64,000 bases of DNA, from the IMG/VR virus record IMGVR_UViG_3300041409_000267, positions 3,750 to 67,749 of that record; one strand, written 5' to 3'. How positions within the stretch are numbered: position 1 is the stretch's first letter; the number at the start of each line of letters is the position of its first letter. This DNA comes from a virus. The position numbers were made by a program, and so were the translations under genes. Below the pieces are notes generated by a model. The model had not been told where the DNA came from. It saw nothing but the letters and a program-made list of their open reading frames with translations, and made no database searches. Positions 3,702 to 43,163 of this stretch are shown here, one piece after another.

Positions 3702-3983
3702 ATGAGCACCGCGAAGTTAGTGCGCGCCAAAGTCAAGCTACGGGAAAACATGCCGGAATGGGCCAGGTGCTGCGAAGAAGGGCTGCGCATTATCGAAGTG
3801 GCGCAAGGCCGCGAGATGGTCGTCAACCTCGATTGCCGCATGGTGCGTGGATGCTTCTGCCTGAAGTGCCAGGAAGGGAACGAGTCGGCAACAGCCGTTT
3901 ACATCGAATCTGGGCGCATCGGTATGGGCTGCTGGTATCCGCTGGAATGGCTTGACCTCGACGAAGGCCCGGTGGCTGCATGA
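3702..3983 (+). CDS. Cys-rich hypothetical protein
   Basis: ORF coupled to the next gene by ATGA. Confidence 0.55.
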   Translation: MSTAKLVRAKVKLRENMPEWARCCEEGLRIIEVAQGREMVVNLDCRMVRGCFCLKCQEGNESATAVYIESGRIGMGCWYPLEWLDLDEGPVAA

Positions 3984-10947: not shown

Positions 10948-13437
10948 ATGAAAAAACTCCTCGCTCTTCTGCTATTCGTGTCTTCGTTCGCCTTCGGTGG
11001 ATCGGTGACAGGTCAAATTACAACCGCGACCTCCGGACCCATCGTCAACGGCACTTTGACTTTCTCTTTGACCCAATCGGCAGTCCAGGCTGGTACGGCC
11101 TCGATCGCGACCTCAGCGGTAAGCTGCTACACCGACCGCGGCGGCAACATTGTCAGCCAGCCCGATCCGCTCGTCGCTCCGATCGTGACGACCAACACCG
11201 GCTCCGGTACGCTGGCTGCGGGAACCTACTTCACCGAATTTACTTACTACGACGCTTCGGGAACCTCATTGGCTTCGTTTGAGACGACCACGGTCTTGTC
11301 CTCGACCGGAACCCTTATCGTGGCGCCGCCAGTGCGTCAACCCGCGACGGCAACCGGCTGGAAGATATTTATTTCATCGACCTCAGGAACCGAGACGCTT
11401 CAATCTACTCAGACGGGCTTCAGTTCGTCTTATCAGCAGAGTTCGGCGCTTGCCGCTGGCTCTGCCCTGCCTTCGTCCAATACCAGCGTCTGCAAAGTTC
11501 TTTTCAACGACCAGTTAATTCCGAGTGGGACGGGGTACAACGTCGGGTTCGTCAACGCCTCCGGATCGAACATCTCAGGCTTCCCGCAGAAGTGGTTCCT
11601 CTCCGGTGGCGCGGCAGGCACAGTGAACGTGTCGAATGGGACGCCGCTGTATTCAGGAACGGTGCAATATCCGCAGGCGATTGTTTCGAGCCCAGGCTTG
11701 AGCGCGCAGCAGAGCATCAACGGGCCGCTGAACTTGAACGGGTTCGGACTGACGGCTGGAACGCTGGGGGTAACAGGAACAACAACGCTTGCAGGTACAG
11801 CGATTCCGGTTATTGGCATTGACCCAACTTCGAGCACTTACGGATGCTCGACTGCCCTGACGGACAATTCCACTTGTATGCAGGCAGCGATTAATGCAGC
11901 GATCAACACAAATACGTGCCTGATTCTGCCTTTGGGCGTTTTTAAATATGCGACCACGCTCAACGCAAATATTGGCATCAATGGCCTTTGCATGAAGGGC
12001 AAGGGGATGCAGCCGAACGTTAGCGGCAACTCTATTTTGAGGTACATGGGCAGCGGAGACGCCATCCTAATCAGCAATGGTGGAAACGCTTTTACCTTCG
12101 CCTCAAATTGGGAAGATGTGGTTATTCAAGCGGGAGCGAATGCCGCCAATGCTGTTCATGCAATCGACCTCTCGGAGTTCACCTTCAGACGTGTAGGAAT
12201 CTGGAATGATTTTCTCGGCCATCAGTTTACAACTGCATGGAACTGTGCAGGCTGCAACATCGGAGCATGGGATGGCTGGATCGTAGCGAATGCGACCAAC
12301 GCAGTAAGGCTTACCGATACCCCCGAAAGCCCTTCAGCGTCTCTGACTTTTCTCCATGCCGATACTTTTCAGGTTACGAATATCTTCGTGATTGATGGGC
12401 AGGGCAACAACATTGCCGACATTGCTGGATGGCATGAAACACAGAACGTTGTTCTGTTGATTGATGACACATCGAAAACCACAGGACTTCAGGCCATCTA
12501 TTTTGACAACACGCGCTCTCTGTTTAATGGTGCGATCGCTACTTATCCCGACTCTCTTTTCATGAAAGTCAATAATGTGGCCGGGAAAATAATGGCCCTC
12601 CACCAAGTAAATTTTGACCACAGCACATATTTTACAAATCAAACCGTTGCTTATCCGATGACAGTGACAATGGCAAATGCCAGCTCTGCTTTGTGGCTTG
12701 GGATCGGCGGGAACTGCTCGTTTCAGGGAGCGACGACGGGGCTTCTCACTTCATCTTTGGTGGCGCAATCTCAACTGAAGCTCAACACCTATGGGTATGA
12801 ATCCGTAAACGCCTCATTCGCGGCCCTCGGTACATTTGTGGGTGGCTCAGGCGCACAGAATACCCAATACGAATACACGGGCATAACGGGCAATGGAGGC
12901 ATCACGCTTAATTCGGCAACCAGTTTTGTGGCTGTCGGGGTAAATCCTGCCGCTTCTGGAGTTGTTCGAGTTCCAAACAATGTGGCCATTGCTGCCAGAA
13001 ACGCCGCCAATAACGCAGACGTGAACCTGGTATTTCTGGACGGCAGCAATCAGGTAAATTTTGGAGCCACCGCTGTTGATCCCACGGCCTTTGTCGCGCC
13101 TCAGCTATTTTCCACCATAGCAACCGGATCACTGCCGCTCGTAATCACGAGTACGACTCCTGTGCCAAATTTAAATTCCAGCCCAATCACACGTAACGCC
13201 GCCGGGACGCAGCAGGTAGCAACGCATATCGTAAAGGACACCTGCACATTAGGAACTAGCTGCAGTGTGACCCTAGCTGGATCATCGGTATTCACCAGCA
13301 ACGCGACTTACGATTGCTTCCCGCGAGATGCTACCACGCCAGCCAATGCCGTGACCGTGACCAGGACTTCAGGCAGCGCGCTTGCATTCACAGGCACAGG
13401 CACGGATGTAATCAACTATGTCTGCGTCGGCAACTAG
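10948..13437 (+). CDS. Signal-peptide-bearing tailspike/depolymerase-like protein (pectin-lyase-type beta-helix)
   Basis: MKKLLALLLFVSSFAFG leader; TDNSTCMQAAINAA...LILPLGVFKY...LCMKGKG is a beta-helix cap motif. Confidence 0.7.
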   Translation: MKKLLALLLFVSSFAFGGSVTGQITTATSGPIVNGTLTFSLTQSAVQAGTASIATSAVSCYTDRGGNIVSQPDPLVAPIVTTNTGSGTLAAGTYFTEFTYYDASGTSLASFETTTVLSSTGTLIVAPPVRQPATATGWKIFISSTSGTETLQSTQTGFSSSYQQSSALAAGSALPSSNTSVCKVLFNDQLIPSGTGYNVGFVNASGSNISGFPQKWFLSGGAAGTVNVSNGTPLYSGTVQYPQAIVSSPGLSAQQSINGPLNLNGFGLTAGTLGVTGTTTLAGTAIPVIGIDPTSSTYGCSTALTDNSTCMQAAINAAINTNTCLILPLGVFKYATTLNANIGINGLCMKGKGMQPNVSGNSILRYMGSGDAILISNGGNAFTFASNWEDVVIQAGANAANAVHAIDLSEFTFRRVGIWNDFLGHQFTTAWNCAGCNIGAWDGWIVANATNAVRLTDTPESPSASLTFLHADTFQVTNIFVIDGQGNNIADIAGWHETQNVVLLIDDTSKTTGLQAIYFDNTRSLFNGAIATYPDSLFMKVNNVAGKIMALHQVNFDHSTYFTNQTVAYPMTVTMANASSALWLGIGGNCSFQGATTGLLTSSLVAQSQLKLNTYGYESVNASFAALGTFVGGSGAQNTQYEYTGITGNGGITLNSATSFVAVGVNPAASGVVRVPNNVAIAARNAANNADVNLVFLDGSNQVNFGATAVDPTAFVAPQLFSTIATGSLPLVITSTTPVPNLNSSPITRNAAGTQQVATHIVKDTCTLGTSCSVTLAGSSVFTSNATYDCFPRDATTPANAVTVTRTSGSALAFTGTGTDVINYVCVGN

Positions 13438-14662: not shown

Positions 14663-16183
14663 ATGAAAAAGATCCTCCTCTCCATCCTCGCTGTAGTGTG
14701 TTCATTCACAGCAGCTACCGCTCAGGCTCCCTCAGCCGGCGGCCGTATTCTCGTTTCGCGTTACGGCGCGTACCAACTCCGCGGCGGCTCGACAGTAGCT
14801 TCCGGTGCAGCCACCATCTCTTTCCCAAGTTCTCAGTACTGCCAGGTGGCCGTCGGCCAGCAGACGATCATCCCCATCGCGACGACTATTCCCTTGAAGA
14901 TCGTCGACGACACCAGCGCGAACACCGAGACCGTGACGCCTTCGGCAGTCTCAGTCAGTGCCGGTGTGTGCAGCTTCACCGCTACCTTCTCGAACGCTCA
15001 CAACTCTTTCTATGTGACATCAGGAACCGGCGGGTTACAGGAAGCGATGCTTAACAACCCGAACGGTGGCGTATTTCTTCTCGACCAGAACTCGACCACG
15101 ACCGACGCAAATATCAAAGCGGCAACCTCTTTCAATCCGTCTATGGTGGTTGAAGACTTTCGCGGCTCGGTCAACGCAGGCGCAGGACAGCCGATTTATT
15201 GGCGCATGAATCCTAGTGCGGTTACTCCTCTGGCAACTCCGACTCCAGCCCCGCTGCCCACTACCACGACCGGCGCGCTGACCTCAAACGCTTACAAAGT
15301 AACGACCGCTTACGTCGATTGCCTGGGTGGGGTTAGCCTTGACTCGGCTGAATCTCTCGCGACCGCGACGACTACCGGTGTGGTGATTCCGTCACCTGCA
15401 GCCAAGACTGGCGCCTGTGGCTGGTTGCCGCGTATCTCAAGCGCTGGTGGAACCGGTGACGAGACGCTGGCGGCATCGCCTCTGCTCAATTCTGTATGCT
15501 CGCTATCGAGTACTGAGACGGTGATACCGGCATGCGCGATCGGCTCGGCTGCAACGATCATTGCCAATCCGACGACCACGGCAAAGCCAAGCGTTGAAGC
15601 CAATGCTTTTGCAACGTACACGCTACAATCTTTCAACTCCCTGCCGCCTCCGGTAGTGACGAGCTATCCGTTCGGTGTCTTTGTCGCGACCGCAACATTG
15701 AATTCCTCAAACGCTGATGCCGCGCAGCTCGGTCCATTCCCGGCTGGCTACTTCAATAAGCTCGGTGGAACCTGGAAACTTTGCGTCAAGGGTGGAACCG
15801 CCACTCAGGTCGCTAGTTCGTTGCTTACGGTAAACATCAAAATTGCTAACGAGTACGCGCAGTCTCCGGTGACGATCTCTTCTTTGGCATTCCCAACGCA
15901 GACACAGGCCGCGGCTGGAACATTTCAAGGATGTTTGCAGTTCCAGACCTCAACGACAGGTGCAAGCGGCAAGTTCTGGGCTTCGACTCCTGACGGGCCC
16001 TGGGTGGACTTCCTGAATACGGCTCCGGCAACGCAGGTGGTCACGGCTGACGCATCGGCGGCGGCATCGTCCGCGGTCGACCTTACCAAAACCAGTTACC
16101 TGAGCATTAACCTTCAGGCAGCGAACGCCAACAATATTACGGTGCCCATCGTAAACTCAGTGTCTTTGGTTCAAATCCAGTAA
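14663..16183 (+). CDS. Signal-peptide-bearing beta-rich virion-associated protein
   Basis: MKKILLSILAVVCSFTAATA|QA leader; Ser/Thr/Ala-rich with multiple Cys; SGTGGLQEA motif. Confidence 0.7.
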   Translation: MKKILLSILAVVCSFTAATAQAPSAGGRILVSRYGAYQLRGGSTVASGAATISFPSSQYCQVAVGQQTIIPIATTIPLKIVDDTSANTETVTPSAVSVSAGVCSFTATFSNAHNSFYVTSGTGGLQEAMLNNPNGGVFLLDQNSTTTDANIKAATSFNPSMVVEDFRGSVNAGAGQPIYWRMNPSAVTPLATPTPAPLPTTTTGALTSNAYKVTTAYVDCLGGVSLDSAESLATATTTGVVIPSPAAKTGACGWLPRISSAGGTGDETLAASPLLNSVCSLSSTETVIPACAIGSAATIIANPTTTAKPSVEANAFATYTLQSFNSLPPPVVTSYPFGVFVATATLNSSNADAAQLGPFPAGYFNKLGGTWKLCVKGGTATQVASSLLTVNIKIANEYAQSPVTISSLAFPTQTQAAAGTFQGCLQFQTSTTGASGKFWASTPDGPWVDFLNTAPATQVVTADASAAASSAVDLTKTSYLSINLQAANANNITVPIVNSVSLVQIQ

Positions 16184-23005: not shown

Positions 23006-23533
23006 GTGTCGCCAACTATGATTCGCTTAAATCTACTAGTTAAGACATGTACTCGCCATCCGGCGCGCGAGAAGTCGCTAAGACATTTCACCTTCCGCAC
23101 GACGGGCAAGTACAGCAAACAGTGCAAACGTTGCTGTCAGGTAGCAGCAGAGAGAATGGCCGAATACACCAGTAAGAATGGGGCCGACGTTAGGGTCAAG
23201 GCGCGTGATCGCATTCGTTCACTGCGCAACAACATTCTTAATTACTATGGCGGCAAATGCGCTTGTTGCGGTGAGCCACGCAAGGAGCTACTTGCCCTTG
23301 ACCACATCAACGGTGGTGGAGCAGAGCACAGAAAAGAGATCGGGGATAGTGGAACAGCAATACTGTGGTGGATACGCAGCAACAATTACCCGCCTATCTT
23401 TCAAGTGCTCTGCCATAATTGCAACTATGCCAAAGGGAAGCATGGTCTACCCTGTCCACACATACAAGAGCGCACTTTGCACCCGATAGACAGAATGGTG
23501 CGTAGTTTTACTCTTGCTGGCACCGTGAACTAG
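23006..23533 (+). CDS. HNH homing endonuclease
   Basis: YGGKCACCGE...LALDHINGGG...QVLCHNCN; lower GC than neighbours. Confidence 0.85.
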   Translation: MSPTMIRLNLLVKTCTRHPAREKSLRHFTFRTTGKYSKQCKRCCQVAAERMAEYTSKNGADVRVKARDRIRSLRNNILNYYGGKCACCGEPRKELLALDHINGGGAEHRKEIGDSGTAILWWIRSNNYPPIFQVLCHNCNYAKGKHGLPCPHIQERTLHPIDRMVRSFTLAGTVN

Positions 23534-30950: not shown

Positions 30951-31529
30951 ATGTCCCGTGGTGATTCTAAAAAAGTGGTCAACGCTGGTCTGGCTAACAG
31001 CGCGACCGACCAAGCAAATGCCAGCAGCGCGTTCGCCGGTACAAACAAGGCCGTCGGCGACTACTCGAACCGCCTCAATACTTTCATCAATGCCAATCCT
31101 TATAAAGCTGGCGGTGAGTTCGCGCAGGATCAGTCCCAGATTGCAGCGTCGGCGGCCGATACCAGTTCAAGCGCGATTAAGGACAAACTGGCACGCGATG
31201 CGCAGACTTCTGGCGAGAATACCGGCGGCTATGCGAACAACGTGGCCGAAGCGCAGCGGCAAGCTACCCGCGACCAAGCCACACACATGGCTGGCGCGGA
31301 CGCTACGCGCATTAGCGCAAAGAGCGCGTACGACAAGGCCGGACTCGATGCCAGCGCACTACCAGCAGACCTGCAAGCGCGGCTCTACGGTACATCGATA
31401 CAGGGTAGAAACGGCGCGCTCGGAACTGCGGGTGACTCGGCAAAACAGCCCAGCTTCCTGGATAGCTTGATGCCAGCTCTCATCGGCGCCGGAGCGCAGG
31501 TCGGAGCGGGATTCACCCCACACGGATAA
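30951..31529 (+). CDS. Internal virion/ejection protein
   Basis: Ala/Gln/Ser-rich helical protein with hydrophobic Gly-rich C-terminus. Confidence 0.7.
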   Translation: MSRGDSKKVVNAGLANSATDQANASSAFAGTNKAVGDYSNRLNTFINANPYKAGGEFAQDQSQIAASAADTSSSAIKDKLARDAQTSGENTGGYANNVAEAQRQATRDQATHMAGADATRISAKSAYDKAGLDASALPADLQARLYGTSIQGRNGALGTAGDSAKQPSFLDSLMPALIGAGAQVGAGFTPHG

Positions 31530-31532
31530 CCC

Positions 31533-33209
31533 ATGCCAGAAACCGAAGATTACACCTCCTCAGATCAACCCATGACTCTCGGCCAGCGTCTGTTGCGCAC
31601 CCGTGGCGCAGCCGCGCTCGAAGACGATCCCACCGGCGAACCATCGGCCGGAGCCACGCCCAACACCAAGGAACCGCACCAGAATACCGGCGCGGCGGCT
31701 CAGGGAGACTCAGTAGCACAGTCACCGTCCGGTAAGCCTTCCATTGGTCGGCGCATGCTCATGGGATCATCCCAGCCGACGGACGGAATCACAGCCCATA
31801 ATTATGATGGTTCGCCGGCAGATATGGCGACCTTTACCGGCACAGATCCCAAGGGGCGCCCAGCGATGAGCATCGCAGCTTCTGCCCCGGCAACTTCCAC
31901 TTCAGTCCCAGCCCCAGCGACTGCCCCGACCATCGGCCAACGTCTGGCCAATTTCAAAGCGCCGCCTGTTGCGCCAAAGATGAATCCGGACCAGGCTGCA
32001 GTGCAGCAGGACCTCCGCGAGCACTCGCAAGTCACACCGAAGACCGACCCGGCCACCGGTAAGACGCTGGATCAGTACAAAATGGGCTTCGGCCAGCGGC
32101 TTCTAGGTTCACTGGTGAATTTCGGCAACGGCTTCGCGCGCACTGGCGCAGATCCTATCCACGTCGGCCCCGGAGCCACCAACCGCCGGTACTCAGTCGA
32201 CGAGACGAACCGCCAACAGAGAGTGGCGGGCGATCAGTCGAAAATCAAGTCCATGGACGACGAATACAATCAGGCCGAAAAGGGCTACGGCCACGAACTG
32301 ACCAGCTATAACGACGAGGCACGGGCGGCAGGAAAGGCCGACTCAGAAGATCGCCTCAGAGACTACGAAAACAAGCTGACTACAGAGCGCACCGCCCACA
32401 ACACAGCGGAGGAAAATCTTCGCGGTGAGAACAACGACCTCAAGGCCCAGCCCAAAACCTATGAGCAATATGTCGGCGCAATGGAAGCCGAGAAGGATCC
32501 AGGCAAAAAGGCCGTCCTGCAGCGGGTAGTCGATCGCCTCGAAAAACAGAAGACCGCCGGTAAGGGACCGAAACTCTCAGCCAAAGACCAGCTGAAACTC
32601 GATGCCTACATGCAGGACAACAAGATCGAGGACGTTGGCGATATGACCAATGCTGACATCAAAAAGGCGCTGGCGGCCAGCGAAGGACCGAATCACACGA
32701 AAGATCGCCAGAGCTTCGAAGACCACTGGAGTAAGCGGTATCAGGATGTGGAGAAGCGGTACGATTCCCAGCGCCAGGCCGTCCTGAAGACCTTCGGAGC
32801 CGACAAAGACCCGAAGGCATTTGAAAATAATAAGGCCGACATCCAGTCCAAGTTCGCTGATATTGAAGCCAAGCGGGAAGCGGACAAGGGCGCGCTGCAG
32901 ACCGAGAAAGACAAAGAAGCCGAGCAGTATCAGGTTTACGGGAAGCCACCCAAGCAACAGACAGCAACTCCATCCGCTCCTGCCGACGGTCCAGAAGCCG
33001 TACCCGCGTCGAACGATTCTGACGGTCAGCCTCTGGCGGCAATTCCAGCCCCGATAGCCTCGGTTCGTACCGGCGCACCGCAGCAGAAGCCATCTCCGGC
33101 GACACCGGCCGACAGCGTGCGGGTACAAAAACCAGACGGCAGTATTGGCACAATCCCGAAAGCCAACGTGCAACGGGCTCAAGCGAAGGGCTGGAAGGTT
33201 CTTCAGTAA
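31533..33209 (+). CDS. Internal virion/ejection protein
   Basis: Low-complexity and coiled-coil; repeated IGQRL-like motif; C-terminal VRVQKPDGSIGTIP...AQAKGWKVL mini-domain. Confidence 0.7.
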   Translation: MPETEDYTSSDQPMTLGQRLLRTRGAAALEDDPTGEPSAGATPNTKEPHQNTGAAAQGDSVAQSPSGKPSIGRRMLMGSSQPTDGITAHNYDGSPADMATFTGTDPKGRPAMSIAASAPATSTSVPAPATAPTIGQRLANFKAPPVAPKMNPDQAAVQQDLREHSQVTPKTDPATGKTLDQYKMGFGQRLLGSLVNFGNGFARTGADPIHVGPGATNRRYSVDETNRQQRVAGDQSKIKSMDDEYNQAEKGYGHELTSYNDEARAAGKADSEDRLRDYENKLTTERTAHNTAEENLRGENNDLKAQPKTYEQYVGAMEAEKDPGKKAVLQRVVDRLEKQKTAGKGPKLSAKDQLKLDAYMQDNKIEDVGDMTNADIKKALAASEGPNHTKDRQSFEDHWSKRYQDVEKRYDSQRQAVLKTFGADKDPKAFENNKADIQSKFADIEAKREADKGALQTEKDKEAEQYQVYGKPPKQQTATPSAPADGPEAVPASNDSDGQPLAAIPAPIASVRTGAPQQKPSPATPADSVRVQKPDGSIGTIPKANVQRAQAKGWKVLQ

Positions 33210-33377
33210 ATGACACCTACAGAAAACGATGATCTTGGATTCGTTCCAGATCAAACCACGGCCGCGTCGAAGTCCATAACAAAAAAGCAAATCCACGCAC
33301 TCGCTGACAAACACGGCGTGAAGCACGCTGAGGCCGAAAAGCAGTTCGCCGACAAGGGTTACACGATCAACCCATAA
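33210..33377 (+). CDS. 55-aa putative adaptor protein (not in the ORF track)
   Basis: MTPTENDDLGFVPDQTTAASKSITKKQIHALADKHGVKHAEAEKQFADKGYTINP; exactly fills the gap, TAA-ATG on both sides. Confidence 0.75.
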   Translation: MTPTENDDLGFVPDQTTAASKSITKKQIHALADKHGVKHAEAEKQFADKGYTINP

Positions 33378-36300
33378 ATGCCTCCAGTCATCGACGACAC
33401 AAAGAAAAACGCCGCAGAAGACGACCTTGGGTTTGTTGCCGAGAGTGACGACTTAGGATTCGTTGCTGACAAGCAAGCGCAGGCACCGGCAGCCGATTCG
33501 CGTCCCGACTTCACCCAGGAAGCGCTTTCCGGAAAGCTGGCGCAACCCGCCGGTAAGCCGACGAAGCTACCAGCCGAGCAGCCAGCCCCAGCCGCAGCGA
33601 TCCCCCGCGGGCGCGGCGACGTGTCCCAAGCAAAAGACGGCTACTTCCCGCCCACCGACATACCGATTCAGGGTGTAAAGGACATCGCCGAAGGGTATCA
33701 GGGGTTCTCTGGTTTGCCGGTTCCTCTCAAGGCCATGCCAGCAGCTCGCGGCCAGATGCCCAGGCCTGTACAGCCTCAGGCCCAGGTATCACCCGAAGAT
33801 CAGGAAGTCCTTACCCAGCAGGAAAACCAGCGCGCAGCATCCGCAGCCAAGATGATTCAGGGCGCCGGGGAGGTCGGTACCGTAGCCCTGCCCGGTTCGA
33901 TAGCAGCCGCCCCACTTTCCACGGTGGCTTCCATTGGCGCCGGAGTTCTGTCCAGTAAAGCCGCCGGGAAAGCAGTTCACGGTAAAGTCTCACCGGAAGC
34001 CGAAGACCTGGTTCGTGCTACCGCATTCTTTATTCCATCGGTGCTCGGTACGGCCGCAGGCGTTAAAGGCGCCAGCATGGAAACGCCGAAGGGTAAGTTC
34101 TCTGCTGTAGAAGCGCTCGGTGGCAAGGTCCGCGCCGGTATCGCGCGCACACCTGACGTCACCTCGGGCCGCGTCAAGATCGGCGACACCCAGTTTGAAG
34201 TAAACATCCCCCGGGGTGGCAAGCCAGCCCCGCCGCCAGCCCTCGACGAAGCCACAGCCGCCATGGTCCAGTACGAGCAGGGCGCCGGGAACATCCCGAA
34301 ACCTCCCACGCCGGTTCCCCCAGGCCAGCAATTCGGCAACAAGCTGTCCGGTGATCAGATTGACCATCTGGCCCAGACCATCGCCAAAGCACCGCCAGAC
34401 CAGCAGAACGCTTTAATTGAAGAGGCACACGGTCGGATGGTTTCGTGGATCAATGACAACAATGGCCGTGTTTTCATTGACGGCAAGGTGGTTTTATCTA
34501 AGTCGCCCGATCAGACAGAAGCCCTGGCAGCCAAGATCATCAATGACGCTTCCTCGGCACACGATAAGAACCAGATCGATTTAGCCAAAGCTAACGACAA
34601 AGCCGTCACCGCAGCCGCAAAGGAAAAAGAGAAACAGAGTACCGCGCAGACCGCCCGGCCAGCTTCGCCCGCGCCTGCCCCTAAGCCTGTCGCAGCCCCG
34701 GCCAAGATTGACTCTACCTCGAAAACTGAAGCGCCACAGAGCCAGCCAGCAGCCGAGAAACCGGTTGTGCAAAAGGTTGAGGAAAAGCCCGCCCACGAGT
34801 TCGCCTCGACTCAGGTAAACATCGATCCCAAGAGTGAACTCGGTCAACAACACGCGCAAGCAGTAGTGGCTATTCCGGATGAGCATATTGGGCCGAACGG
34901 GAAAGAAGATACACCGCACGTCACGGTGCGCTACGGACTCAAGGATGATAGTCCGGAAGCCATCGCCAAGATAAAAGAAGCGGCTTCAAAGATCGCGCCG
35001 TTTGAGGCCACGGTCGGCAAGACCAGTTCGTTCCCGGCGACCAAAGAAGGCGACAGTCCGATCATTGCCCGGGTTGAGAAATCACCCGAACTTAACGCCT
35101 TACGTTCAGCCGTTGAGGGTGCTGGGAACTTTAAGGAAGACACTCACGGCGAGTACAAGCCGCACGTCACCCTGGGCTATGTGAAGCCGGAGCATGTCGC
35201 GAAGTACGAAGGCGGCAACCATCTGGAAGGCGGCAAGGTCCCGGTTGACCACATCGTCGTTTCAAAACGAGACGGCACCAGTGAAACTATAAAACTCGGC
35301 GGCAAGCCGGTTCCTGACCTTGTAGCGCAGCACGAAGCCACCCCGGACTTAGTAGCCGAACACGAAGCGCAGCCGGAGCGCCGCCGCGACGCGGAGACTC
35401 GCAAGCGCCTCGAACAGATGTCCCCAGAAGAGAAGGATGCCGAGATTGCGTCCCTACGCGCAGAGCGCACCACGGCCAAACTCGATAACAGCGACGGTAC
35501 TTTTACGAAGCTGCCAATTCCCAGCGCGGTAGCTTTCCACGAAGCCCCTCCATCTAAAGCCGTGGGCATGTCCGACGCCGATGGCCTGAAAGCGGTCAAC
35601 GACAAATACGGGTATAAGGCCGGAAATGCTCTTCTACTTGCCAAAGCCGAAGCGCTCAAGGAAGCCGGGCTCGATGCCTACCACCAAAAAGGCGATGAGT
35701 TCCTTGGGCGCGGCGACTCAACCGAAGACGTAAAAGCCAAGTTCGAGAAGGCCCGCGATATACTTCGCAACCGAGAATTCACCGTAACCGATGCCGATGG
35801 CAAACAGGTTACGATGAGGGGAGTAGATTTTAGTTATGGAACAGGAAAAGACCTCGCAGAAGCCCAAGCCGGACTCCATGTCCACAAAGCCGAACGCAAA
35901 GCAGCCGGAGCCGGAGCCCGCGGTGAGTTTGGAAGAATTAGTGAAACTGGATCTCAAACAGCCGATCACGGTGGAACCGAAGAAGTAACTCACGCGCTGC
36001 CTGAAGGTATCCCGGCCAAAGGACAGGCTGGCCGCGTCCCGGTAAAAAGCCTTACCCTGGCGCCGAAAGAATTCCAGTACAAACTCAACACCAACGAGCA
36101 CGGTGTCACCAACCTGCTCTCAGGCCAGAAGTGGAACGACAGTCTGGCCGGCGTAGTCTCGGTCTGGCACAACCCAGCCAACGGCAAAACCTACGTGGTA
36201 AACGGTCACCACCGGGTTCAACTGGCAAAACAGAATGGCCAGAAAGACCTGCTGGCCCAACATCTGAATGTAAATTCCGCCAGCGAAGCGCGCGCAATGG

Positions 36301-41173: not shown

Positions 41174-41665
41174 ATGTCAGAAGAAGTGAAACTGAAACCG
41201 CTTACCAAGAAGCAACTCAAGTTTGTCGAGTGTTTTGCCGGTAATCTAACCGATGCAGCACGCAAGGCCGGCCTGCCATTTCCAAATGTTACCGGCGCAA
41301 AGATGATGAAGTTGCCAGCAGTAAAGGCGGCGATTGAAGAGAAGAAATCCGCCATCGCCGCCGCGACAAAGGCCGTTGTGGTCGCATCCGGTACGGAACT
41401 CGGTACGGCCATCGGTGTCGCCATCACTCGCGACTCGATCGCGCAAAGAGCTTGGGCAATCGCGCAGTCCGGACCGGACAACATGGGCATGTTTACGAGC
41501 CAGGTCAACGCGCTCAAATTTCTCGGCGAGTTGATGAAGTTCACCGGAGATGCGCAAGAAGGCGAAATCAAGAGCGGCATGATCAAGCGGGCAGACGGAG
41601 AAGTTGAAGTCTATCAGTCGAAGTGGATAAAGCAGCAACCCAGTGAGTACAGTCCAGATAATTGA
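41174..41665 (+). CDS. terS: Terminase small subunit
   Basis: LTKKQLKFVECFAGNLTDAARKAG HTH directly upstream of the large subunit. Confidence 0.85.
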   Translation: MSEEVKLKPLTKKQLKFVECFAGNLTDAARKAGLPFPNVTGAKMMKLPAVKAAIEEKKSAIAAATKAVVVASGTELGTAIGVAITRDSIAQRAWAIAQSGPDNMGMFTSQVNALKFLGELMKFTGDAQEGEIKSGMIKRADGEVEVYQSKWIKQQPSEYSPDN

Positions 41666-43163
41666 TCCTCTAACAAATCATCCATGGTGGCCGAAAACTC
41701 CCGCGCAGCAAGCAGCTCTTGATTGTGAAGCCGAACTCCTCATGTTCGGCGGTGCAGCAGGATCACTTAAGAGTCACACCCTCTGCCTTGACGCCATCCA
41801 GGAACGCGATAACCCGAACCTTCGCGCAATATTTTTTCGTCAAACGTTCCCGCAGCTCAGCGACTTGCTGGAGAAACAGCAGCGTCTTTATCGGCCCATG
41901 CTCGCTACATACAACGAGCAAAAGAAAGTCTGGACTTTCCCTTCAAAGGGAACGGTTTCCCTCGGCTATCTGGATAAAGACACTGACGTCTGGAATTATT
42001 GGGGCAAGGAATTCAGCGCGGAATACTTTGATGAATCCACGCTCCTGCCCGAGTTCCGCGTCCGTACGCTCCTAAGCCGCTTGCGCACCACTGACACGTC
42101 TCTGCGCCCGCGCGCCCGTCTCGGAACCAACCCCGGCGGCATCGGCGCGGCATGGCACATCCACACCTTCTTGCGCGGCCACTGCCCGGTACATGAGCCC
42201 ACGCGCTCCGCGATCCCCGGCACCATCTACAAGAACGCGACATGGAAAAGTGACAACGCTCACATTCCACTGACCACCGCGTTCATTCCCGGAAAACTTA
42301 GCGACCACAATCTGCTTGGCGACAGGTACGCCCAGTTACTGAGAATGCAGTCCGGCTCACTGGCGAAATCCCTTGAGATGGGCTGCTGGTGCGAACTGGA
42401 TGGCGCCTACTTCTCCAACTGGAACAAGGACACCATGCGCGTACCGTACGCCACGGTAGGCGAACGCTGGTGGGACTCGCACTTCATTTCCATGGACTAC
42501 GGCTTTGGCAAATCCTCAGCCTCGGCTCATCTCCACGTCCGAACACAGGACGGCAAGATCAGAACCATTGGTGAGTTCGTTGTGGCGCATATGCCGGCGT
42601 ATGAGTTTGCCAACGAAGTAATCGAGCGGCTGGTGAAGCCGGTTTATCAGGGCAATGCTCGGCGCATTGTCGCGGTATACCTTGATCCGGCCAACTTCAA
42701 AGACATTGGCGACGGTCACACGATCGCGGACCAGATCAACGAGAAGCTAGATCCTTACAACCTGGTCTGCACCAAAGCCTCAAATGACCGGATCGGCGGC
42801 TGGCAGTTGATGTACCAGATGCTTTCAAGCGGCGAGTGGGCCGTAGCCGATACCTGCCCGAAATTAGTAGAAGCGATCCCAACCAGAATGCACGATGAGA
42901 AAAAGCCCGGCGATTTAATCAAGGTACCGGGCGATGACCTCGACGATGTGATGGACGATACGCGGTACGGCATCTATTCGTTTATCACTACGGCCGTAAA
43001 GCCGGACTCAGTTCGAATCGAAGAAGCCCTGGCAGGAATACCGATCGAGGACGCCACTTCCAGAATGATCAGGCATGCCCAGATCACGGCAGAACTGGCA
43101 GTGAGTAAGGCCCCAGTAGCCTTAGGCCGGCGCGGCCTGATGAACGCAAGAAGGAATAGATAG
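41643..43163 (+). CDS. terL: Terminase large subunit
   Basis: GGAAGSLKS Walker A variant, YFDE Walker B, GTNPGG, SMDYG and DDVMDDTRY nuclease motifs. Confidence 0.95.
   Translation: MSTVQIIDPLTNHPWWPKTPAQQAALDCEAELLMFGGAAGSLKSHTLCLDAIQERDNPNLRAIFFRQTFPQLSDLLEKQQRLYRPMLATYNEQKKVWTFPSKGTVSLGYLDKDTDVWNYWGKEFSAEYFDESTLLPEFRVRTLLSRLRTTDTSLRPRARLGTNPGGIGAAWHIHTFLRGHCPVHEPTRSAIPGTIYKNATWKSDNAHIPLTTAFIPGKLSDHNLLGDRYAQLLRMQSGSLAKSLEMGCWCELDGAYFSNWNKDTMRVPYATVGERWWDSHFISMDYGFGKSSASAHLHVRTQDGKIRTIGEFVVAHMPAYEFANEVIERLVKPVYQGNARRIVAVYLDPANFKDIGDGHTIADQINEKLDPYNLVCTKASNDRIGGWQLMYQMLSSGEWAVADTCPKLVEAIPTRMHDEKKPGDLIKVPGDDLDDVMDDTRYGIYSFITTAVKPDSVRIEEALAGIPIEDATSRMIRHAQITAELAVSKAPVALGRRGLMNARRNR

Follow-up and report, generated by a model that had tools for sequence, protein, structure and literature searches.

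Little is understood of how podovirus-like phages choose very large proteins, keep them in the head and later let them go, and one locus of a soil phage puts the question in compact form: why should a gene for a protein of only 55 residues stand between the gene of a putative internal virion protein and that of a giant cargo protein? The locus lies in a 64,000-nucleotide stretch of IMG/VR record IMGVR_UViG_3300041409_000267 (positions 3,750 to 67,749; hereafter, the window), and the source record is a complete virus of 67,749 bp with direct terminal repeats. Three genes, P0001 (31533-33209, 558 residues), P0002 (33210-33377, 55 residues) and P0003 (33378-41162, 2594 residues), occupy one frame of the plus strand, and the initial annotation of this DNA had correctly placed them head to tail with TAA-ATG joints: coordinates and junction letters give TAAATG at both P0001/P0002 and P0002/P0003. 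Here we report that P0002, judged by sequence comparison, is a real gene belonging to a small family of stand-alone mini-proteins encoded directly upstream of giant cargo genes in soil phages. We propose that the small C-terminal domains (tails) and short acidic N-terminal motifs (plugs) of these proteins dock onto one another, a predicted binding that is the best reading of the locus and to which we give a probability of about one half.

P0002 is built of two parts. Its first 18 residues form a disordered acidic N-terminus (net charge -4) carrying the motif DDLGFVPD at residues 7-14 (33228-33251, plus strand), which we term a B-type plug. Residues 21-55 (33270-33374, plus strand) form a type-A tail, modeled as strand-helix-helix-strand at a predicted local distance difference test score (pLDDT) of about 90. 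A six-frame scan of all 64 kb placed DDLGF at three sites, none of them beyond the N-termini of P0002 and P0003, bearing out the initial observation that the motif of the middle gene occurs twice at the start of the giant. There it forms two tandem B-type plugs (33420-33470, plus strand), DDLGFVAE (residues 15-22) and DDLGFVAD (24-31). Residues 1-20 of P0002 align with residues 1-40 of P0003 at a score of 46, reached by 0 of 1000 shuffles. The plug of P0002 and its flanks match the second N-terminal repeat of the giant in a relative, L017, and the plugs at the P0003 N-terminus are collinear with the third.

The closest relatives, L001 and L002, lack a 55-residue gene; in both, the upstream protein itself ends in a tail-A segment homologous to residues 19-55 of P0002. 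The alignment to the L001 tail scored 103, again reached by none of 1000 shuffles, and of the 16 positions at which 14 other A tails show at least 70% conservation, P0002 retains 13. The C-terminus of P0002 had also been thought to resemble that of P0001, and this likeness did not withstand comparison: the last 40 residues of P0001 and residues 19-55 of P0002 score 19, a value reached by 318 of 1000 shuffles and so not significant, the two ends have in common only a final Lys-Gly-aromatic-x-aliphatic strand, and the models show different mini-folds. At the DNA level there was no signal of a recent tandem duplication in the window (tail against tail, score 14; shuffle mean, 15.2). Fold and profile searches with tail A, for which LysM, ribbon-helix-helix and SAP/HeH were among the known folds considered, gave no Pfam match, a best Foldseek E of 0.61 and a best VIA Z of 3.3.

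The arrangement is not an assembly chimera, since both junctions are present in independent soil runs. In run X2, from another study, one contig covers 33098-33248 with 1 difference and a second covers 33297-33446 with 11 differences, while in run X3, also from another study, a contig covers 33092-33242 with 4 differences. The junction arrangement thus persists in a diverged population. No RNA run was listed among those holding this DNA. A further soil run, X4, contains a 14-kb contig that matches the window to 33108 and then continues into an A-type tail as in L001, indicating that A-type and hybrid junctions both circulate in soils.

P0002 is a recurrent design and not a one-off accident, as homologues are found in two other phage genomes, L025 (complete, 101.9 kb) and L026, whose upstream proteins end in another tail type, F. 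Directly 5' of the giant, each has a small open reading frame (ORF), of 53 residues in L025 and 59 in L026, that joins the genome's own plug to a C-terminal tail A. The plug is in each case the genome-specific variant: all 3 copies in L025 read GF[ET]LEG, and all 3 in L026 read GF[SE]PD. The L025 ORF matched the tail-A alignment in hhalign with 94% probability (E 1.3e-7), and BLASTP aligned P0002 with the L026 ORF over 51 residues, the GFxPD core included (E 3e-10). When a tail-A hidden Markov model (HMM) was run over six-frame translations of the loci, only the upstream proteins of L001 and L002, P0002 (1.3e-20) and the L025 and L026 ORFs (4e-8 and 2e-7) scored below 1e-6. The plug-and-socket layout first suggested for the 55-residue protein recurs as a "plug + tail" design. 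Word-based searches with P0002, which miss the L025 and L026 homologues, recovered P0002 itself, the sole candidate, at near lengths and 0 of 8 candidates at longer ones. A back-translated tail-B pattern had 0 matches, a scan with P0052 gave no locus, and a tail-A pattern hit 8 stretches, comprising the 2 known relatives and 6 chance matches.

The tail is not peculiar to P0002. A profile search of 1.84 billion proteins gave a P0001 family of 104 representatives whose bodies align, while their C-terminal 30-45 residues are of at least eight types that bear no relation to one another: A (as in P0002), B (as in P0001), B', C (SH3-like by eye), D, E, F, G and H. In P0001 (modeled at a mean pLDDT of 75.4) a disordered acidic N-terminus precedes a helical body at about 130-470 with one 87-residue helix; the linker at 475-524 is disordered, with pLDDT below 50 over 50 residues, after which the score rises above 90 for the type-B tail, our proposed socket (residues 527-558; 33111-33206, plus strand; strand-strand-helix-strand). 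Tail B has 14 invariant residues in four proteins whose bodies are 21-27% identical, and is 55-62% identical between loci whose bodies are at 33-36%. Of the 68 full-length members, 62 have a tail with net basic charge. The P0001 family is thus one of interchangeable C-terminal mini-domains behind disordered linkers. Two members have plug-like N-termini of their own, P0098 combining EDLGFV with a G-type tail and P0010 combining PIDFE with an A tail, and these sequences hint at longer chains in other phages.

A survey for co-varying pairs of C-terminal and N-terminal motifs, proposed in the initial annotation, was positive. Fifteen giants align with the first 500 residues of P0003; all 15 have an acidic start (net charge -3 to -9 over the first 40 residues), and in most of them a motif particular to the lineage is repeated in tandem, in 1-4 copies. 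DNA was at hand for 12 loci (the window, L001, L002, L017-L022 and L024-L026), and in 12 of 12 the giant opens with at least two tandem acidic repeats. Tail A goes with PDLV[SA][EQ][FY]E plugs in L001 and L002, tail B with D[LF]GF[VI]PD in the window, L017 and L020, tail B' with [IV]DF[EQ]P in L019 and L022, and tail F with PPGF[ET].. in L025 and L026. Plug class hence matches the class of the upstream tail in 9 of 9 loci of the four multi-member classes. Single loci pair tail C with PLDDLD (L024), tail G with [EQ]VEEAP (L021) and an SH3-like tail with VVSxDDL (L018), and four further probable A/PDLV pairs, P0004-P0109, P0122-P0110, P0005-P0111 and P0024-P0113, were matched indirectly, by the equal lengths of their longest contigs. 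The earlier supposition that every tail binds DDLGF differs from what this comparison shows, as tail A ends the upstream protein of the closest relatives and a PDLVSEFE plug follows it.

The window itself records a natural swap. Every neighboring gene is 66-98% identical to its counterpart in L001, L002 or both, relatives of the A lineage, whereas the tail of P0001 and all three N-terminal plugs are of type B. DNA identity to L001 and L002 ends exactly after ...PSPATP and resumes exactly at RPDFTQEAL..., and between these breakpoints lies a B-type cassette consisting of tail B, a stop-start, P0002, a stop-start and two DDLGFV repeats. By sequence, then, the A-type junction of an A-lineage backbone is replaced by a B-type cassette: the giants of L001 and L002 have PDLVSE[FY]E, twice, at the start where the window has DDLGFV, and P0003 retains, just after its 2H phosphoesterase domain, an internal pair of A-type plugs, PDLVAQHEA and PDLVAEHEA (residues 646-664; 35313-35369, plus strand). 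Taken together with their flanks, the plug of P0002 (DDLGFVPDQTT) and the second plug of P0003 (DDLGFVADKQAQAP) are collinear with repeats 2 and 3 in the single N-terminus of the L017 giant, and the block of tail B, P0002 and DDLGFV repeats may have arrived in one exchange. Among the 15 genes compared (20113-43163), tail B is the sole candidate of type B for the receptor of the plugs. No argument for tails as the partners of plugs is stronger, because a receptor for the B plug specified by another part of an A-type genome would not match it.

Where the window has the cassette, L001 and L002 have gaps of 417 and 599 nucleotides with many in-frame stops and an ORF on the reverse strand (L001:11626-12036, 136 residues; L002:11635-12108, 157 residues), a gene that the window lacks. 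The two reverse-strand products are 41% identical (E 7e-14) and have a twin-arginine-like N-terminus, with a Pfam TAT match at E 0.04-0.1, below the cut-off.

In the mechanism we propose, basic tails on flexible linkers would act as sockets and acidic repeats as plugs, which in its broad lines is the idea of the initial annotation. Several copies of the presumably oligomeric upstream protein could then hold the giant and the mini-protein by docking of tails on peptides, with avidity, which would let the cargo be co-packaged on an internal core and leave the capsid in order. The plug of P0002 would dock on tail B of P0001. For its tail A there are two candidate ligands: the N-terminal DDLGFV repeats of the giant, as in the initial annotation, which would make P0002 an extender, or the internal PDLV repeats of P0003 at 646-664, which would make it a B-to-A adaptor. 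Complex prediction of P0002 with residues 1-60 of P0003, in a run without controls, gave scores of 0.07 and 0.05 against a mark of 0.32 and counts neither for nor against binding.

A wider form of this proposal is possible, and we advance it tentatively: that Acidobacteriota phages use a combinatorial plug-and-socket code of at least seven cognate classes to chain internal virion proteins head to tail, for the loading of giant multi-enzyme cargo on the core and its orderly ejection, that "plug + socket" adaptors or extenders of 50-60 residues keep the chain intact after a cassette swap, and that P0002 bridges tail B of P0001 to the internal PDLV repeats of P0003. Contacts of internal virion proteins in packaging and ejection are of a known kind; there is a worthwhile chance that those described here form a new modular docking code. 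In the literature searched, the motifs DDLGF, DLGFV and PDLVSEF occurred in no paper on phages, and no plug-and-tail system was described among the papers that broader searches listed.

Several observations weigh against docking. Tail- and plug-coding DNA lie 0-599 nucleotides apart, so that co-inheritance by linkage alone would give the same association, and the classes are few, with related members within each. Tails B and F are unrelated in sequence, yet both go with similar GF-type plugs, and tail A is followed by PDLV plugs when it is on the upstream protein but by GF-type plugs when stand-alone (3 of 3); a strict code of one tail for one plug is thus unsupported. The full giants of L025 (5564 residues) and L026 (3018 residues) contain no internal PPGF or PDLV copy, leaving the idea of an adaptor to internal plugs unsupported outside the window. 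The X2 variant has 3 non-synonymous and 0 synonymous differences in the 27 tail codons covered, at a depth of 2 at which some may be errors. P0001 is without detectable homology to characterized ejection or scaffolding proteins and its place in the virion comes from gene order only, while P0002 as a protein, and as a virion component, is predicted from its gene alone.

An alternative that fits much of this evidence, though we consider it unlikely, is that the acidic repeats are capsid-targeting signals read by the portal, scaffold or core, and that the tails are independent payloads, for example DNA- or envelope-binding ones; P0002 would then deliver tail A in trans and co-variation would reflect linkage. 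The same plug is found on two different proteins in each of three genomes, as a shared signal would be, and the parts of one account consulted describe capsid-targeting signals of T4 and P1 as shared or portable (PMC9024508). The prevailing basic charge of the tails, the similar plugs that accompany the unrelated tails B and F, and the adjacency of tail and plug DNA fit this explanation too. It is less easily reconciled with the swap, in which B-type plugs on an A-lineage backbone would mismatch a receptor encoded elsewhere and tail B is the only B-type candidate, and fold searches with tail A gave no assignment to DNA-binding or wall-binding folds.

It is less probable still that P0002 is a neutral scar of recombination, a functionless by-product of cassette shuffling at a hypervariable junction, where fission or fusion would have put the first repeat of a giant together with an upstream tail. 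The N-termini of P0002 and P0003 are together collinear with the single N-terminus of the L017 giant (...VPDKTT..., ...VADAQKA...), interrupted by the tail-A segment, and the junction is a hotspot where relatives carry a reverse-strand gene; the word-based search recovered no other stand-alone homologue, and the codon differences of the X2 variant in the covered part of the tail are all non-synonymous. Against a scar, the two-part layout is found again in L025 and L026, where the upstream protein is no more than a remote relative of P0001, and a variant with 11 of 150 bases different still has the ORF, the two TAAATG junctions and the conserved residues of the tail. Conservation of the tail-A positions and a confident model fold argue in the same direction. 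The P0002 design may first have arisen by fission of a giant's N-terminus or by the reverse.

Very unlikely, in our view, is the possibility that the acidic motifs are cleavage sites at which a maturation protease trims and cuts the giant. Copies of the motif at the N-terminus and in the inter-domain linker after the 2H domain would suit such sites, and the idea recalls the processing of packaged proteins in T4 and P1 described in part of a survey of polyvalent proteins (PMC5512222). Yet no prohead protease was recognized in the window by Pfam or PHROGs, and cleavage leaves unexplained the tandem copies, the match of plugs to tail classes and the plug on a 55-residue protein. Stop-codon readthrough into a P0001-P0002-P0003 polyprotein, the alternative raised in the initial annotation, we reject as highly improbable: the three ORFs do share one frame with single TAA stops, but the genes of relatives are separated by 98-599 nucleotides (about 100-130 in L017 and L018, and in L001 and L002 the long, stop-rich gaps with a reverse-strand gene), with no conserved in-frame design. 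To our knowledge, TAA followed by A is not a leaky stop context.

The proposed docking would serve a giant of a recognizable kind. P0003 (33378-41162, plus strand; identified by Pfam and PHROG matches) has ART-PolyVal (1.7e-15) and 2_5_RNA_ligase2 (3.5e-15) domains above cut-offs and a LigT_PEase match at 4.5e-7, the latter two marking a 2H phosphoesterase; a GGDEF-like stretch is weak (0.0091, below cut-off). A region that looks ParB-like by eye matches the C-terminal part of the portal-fusion family phrog_21 (4.4e-70), and the C-terminal region of about 680 residues is conserved, with hydrophobic segments. With several unrelated effector domains in one protein, encoded in the late operon of a complete phage with terminase directly downstream, P0003 is a polyvalent protein.

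Internal repeats of the N-terminal class, 1-3 kb from the junction, occur in the A-lineage giants and in L021, L022 and L024, and the PDLV-type pair after the 2H phosphoesterase domain is kept in all A-lineage giants. Internal plugs of the giant's own class lie at about 513 and 980 in L021, about 398 in L022, and about 921 and 1160 in L024. The 5564-residue open frame of the L025 giant (L029, G405:C1:17500-35200) has three EPPAYSL-like acidic motifs at about 2848, 4411 and 4711, which are of another class than its N-terminal plugs. In the prophage L019 (9384-16779) the giant appears to be split: a 718-residue ORF has the plugs and overlaps a second one, of at least 1781 residues, which could reflect a frameshift or a broken gene.

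The operon around these genes runs from an 880-residue protein through proteins of 312, 185 and 192 residues to P0001 and the giant. The same order is seen in L001 and L002 (per-gene identity 66-98%, taking the better of the two) and, with identities of 27-49%, in Acidobacteriota metagenome-assembled genomes (MAGs), on contigs as long as 684 kb. L017-L022 are Terriglobales MAG contigs of 32-684 kb (Candidatus Angelobacter, Acidobacteriaceae, Candidatus Sulfotelmatobacter). Because relatives of the operon sit in Acidobacteriota MAG contigs, the hosts are probably Terriglobales (Acidobacteriota) and some of the relatives probably prophages. Among 401 genomes sampled from the class of genome G001, the family was present in one, G001 itself. 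Scans of IMG/VR and metagenomes with P0001, A1 and A5 recovered only the relatives L001 and L002, and GenBank phages had no match to P0001 or to the last 694 residues of P0003.

The 192-residue protein (30951-31529, plus strand), one end of which is hydrophobic and rich in Gly and Ala, may be the first of the internal virion proteins; its likeness to gp14 is one of position only. It is 87-89% identical in L001 and L002 and 42-45% in L018, L020 and L021, is always encoded directly 5' of a P0001-family gene and matched no Pfam or PHROG family. P0001 (31533-33209, plus strand), recognized here through its family of 104 and its structure model, had no Pfam, PHROG, PDB or Foldseek match (best PDB profile E 0.058; best Foldseek E 1.0); P0042 matched nothing in PDB, and a lead from P0001 to Inj_translocase reached a score of only 0.78. 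A role for P0001 as a scaffolding protein was considered and discarded: PF06810 matches 2 of 54 members (best E 1.7e-4) and not P0001 itself, and the gene has tail-side genes on one side and the giant on the other, with no capsid gene next to it. A supposed resemblance between some tails and the coat-binding end of a scaffolding protein was dropped as well, no tool supporting it.

Small and large terminase subunits (41174-43163, plus strand; phrog_51, 2.3e-9, and phrog_979, 4.9e-36) close the late operon. The remaining operon genes had no Pfam or PHROG match except an HNH endonuclease and part of a decoration-like domain. The HNH endonuclease gene (23006-23533; phrog_2255, 1.7e-12) lies amid otherwise unrecognizable structural genes. 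Two proteins, of 829 residues (10948-13437) and 506 residues (14663-16183), have signal-peptide-like N-termini, which is odd for virion proteins, and no family match.

The docking that we propose has partial parallels in known systems. In polyketide and non-ribosomal peptide synthases, docking domains at the C-terminus of one protein pair with those at the N-terminus of the following one; cognate classes set the order, and the domains are swappable. The parallel is one of analogy, in another setting and with other folds, and here one side of the candidate pairing would be a short repeated linear motif. Encapsulins load cargo into an HK97-fold shell by short terminal cargo-loading peptides, the receptor being the shell protein, whereas the co-varying candidate receptor here would be the tail of another internal protein.

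Phage heads offer closer comparisons. In P1, the first 30 residues of DarB direct cargo to the capsid, and incorporation of P1 cargo is stepwise and needs small helper proteins, according to the parts of the DarB account cited here (PMC9024508). As far as those parts go, T4 internal proteins and P1 DarB resemble the present system in having a short N-terminal peptide, on giant anti-host cargo and on smaller proteins, which in those phages directs them into the head. The peptide here differs in being tandem (2-4 copies), sometimes internal and of at least seven lineage-specific classes, and in co-varying with a swappable C-terminal mini-domain of a neighboring protein, all of this being known from genes. 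In the cited portion of that account the receptor of the T4 and P1 signals is not named (PMC9024508), and we claim no sequence similarity to them.

As in the T7 genes for gp14, gp15 and gp16, three consecutive genes here follow the tail genes and precede terminase, the last encoding a giant with hydrophobic segments, and on gene order only the 192-residue protein, P0001 and P0003 correspond by position to the three T7-like internal or ejection proteins. No homology to gp14, gp15 or gp16 was detected for P0001 or the 192-residue protein with Pfam and PHROG, or for P0001 with PDB (E <0.05) and Foldseek. The sections consulted of a T7 study describe an N-terminal portion of gp16 (gp16-N) as a "molecular tape" stabilizing the C-terminal region of gp15, and domain swapping as common among ejection proteins (PMC8954989). 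The T7 contact, as given there, is an extended 70-residue segment on a large helical domain, in contrast to a short repeated motif and a 30-residue mini-domain, and T7 has no adaptor protein such as P0002 may be. Polyvalent proteins have been predicted to be packaged and injected (PMC5512222, Iyer et al. 2017, in the parts consulted), and like them P0003 joins ART-PolyVal and a 2H phosphoesterase in one giant late-operon protein. Those parts tie packaging to MuF/portal fusions and "header" domains and contain no tandem N-terminal repeats or partner tails.

The P0001 family thus offers a candidate receptor, a tail of about 30 residues, together with a peptide ligand, natural classes, a swap and adaptors, and whether plugs bind tails can be tested with nothing more than peptides and small domains. 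Should they bind, the pairs would furnish compact, orthogonal tags with which chosen proteins could be loaded into phage capsids, and would explain why the junctions of ejection-protein genes are hotspots of recombination.

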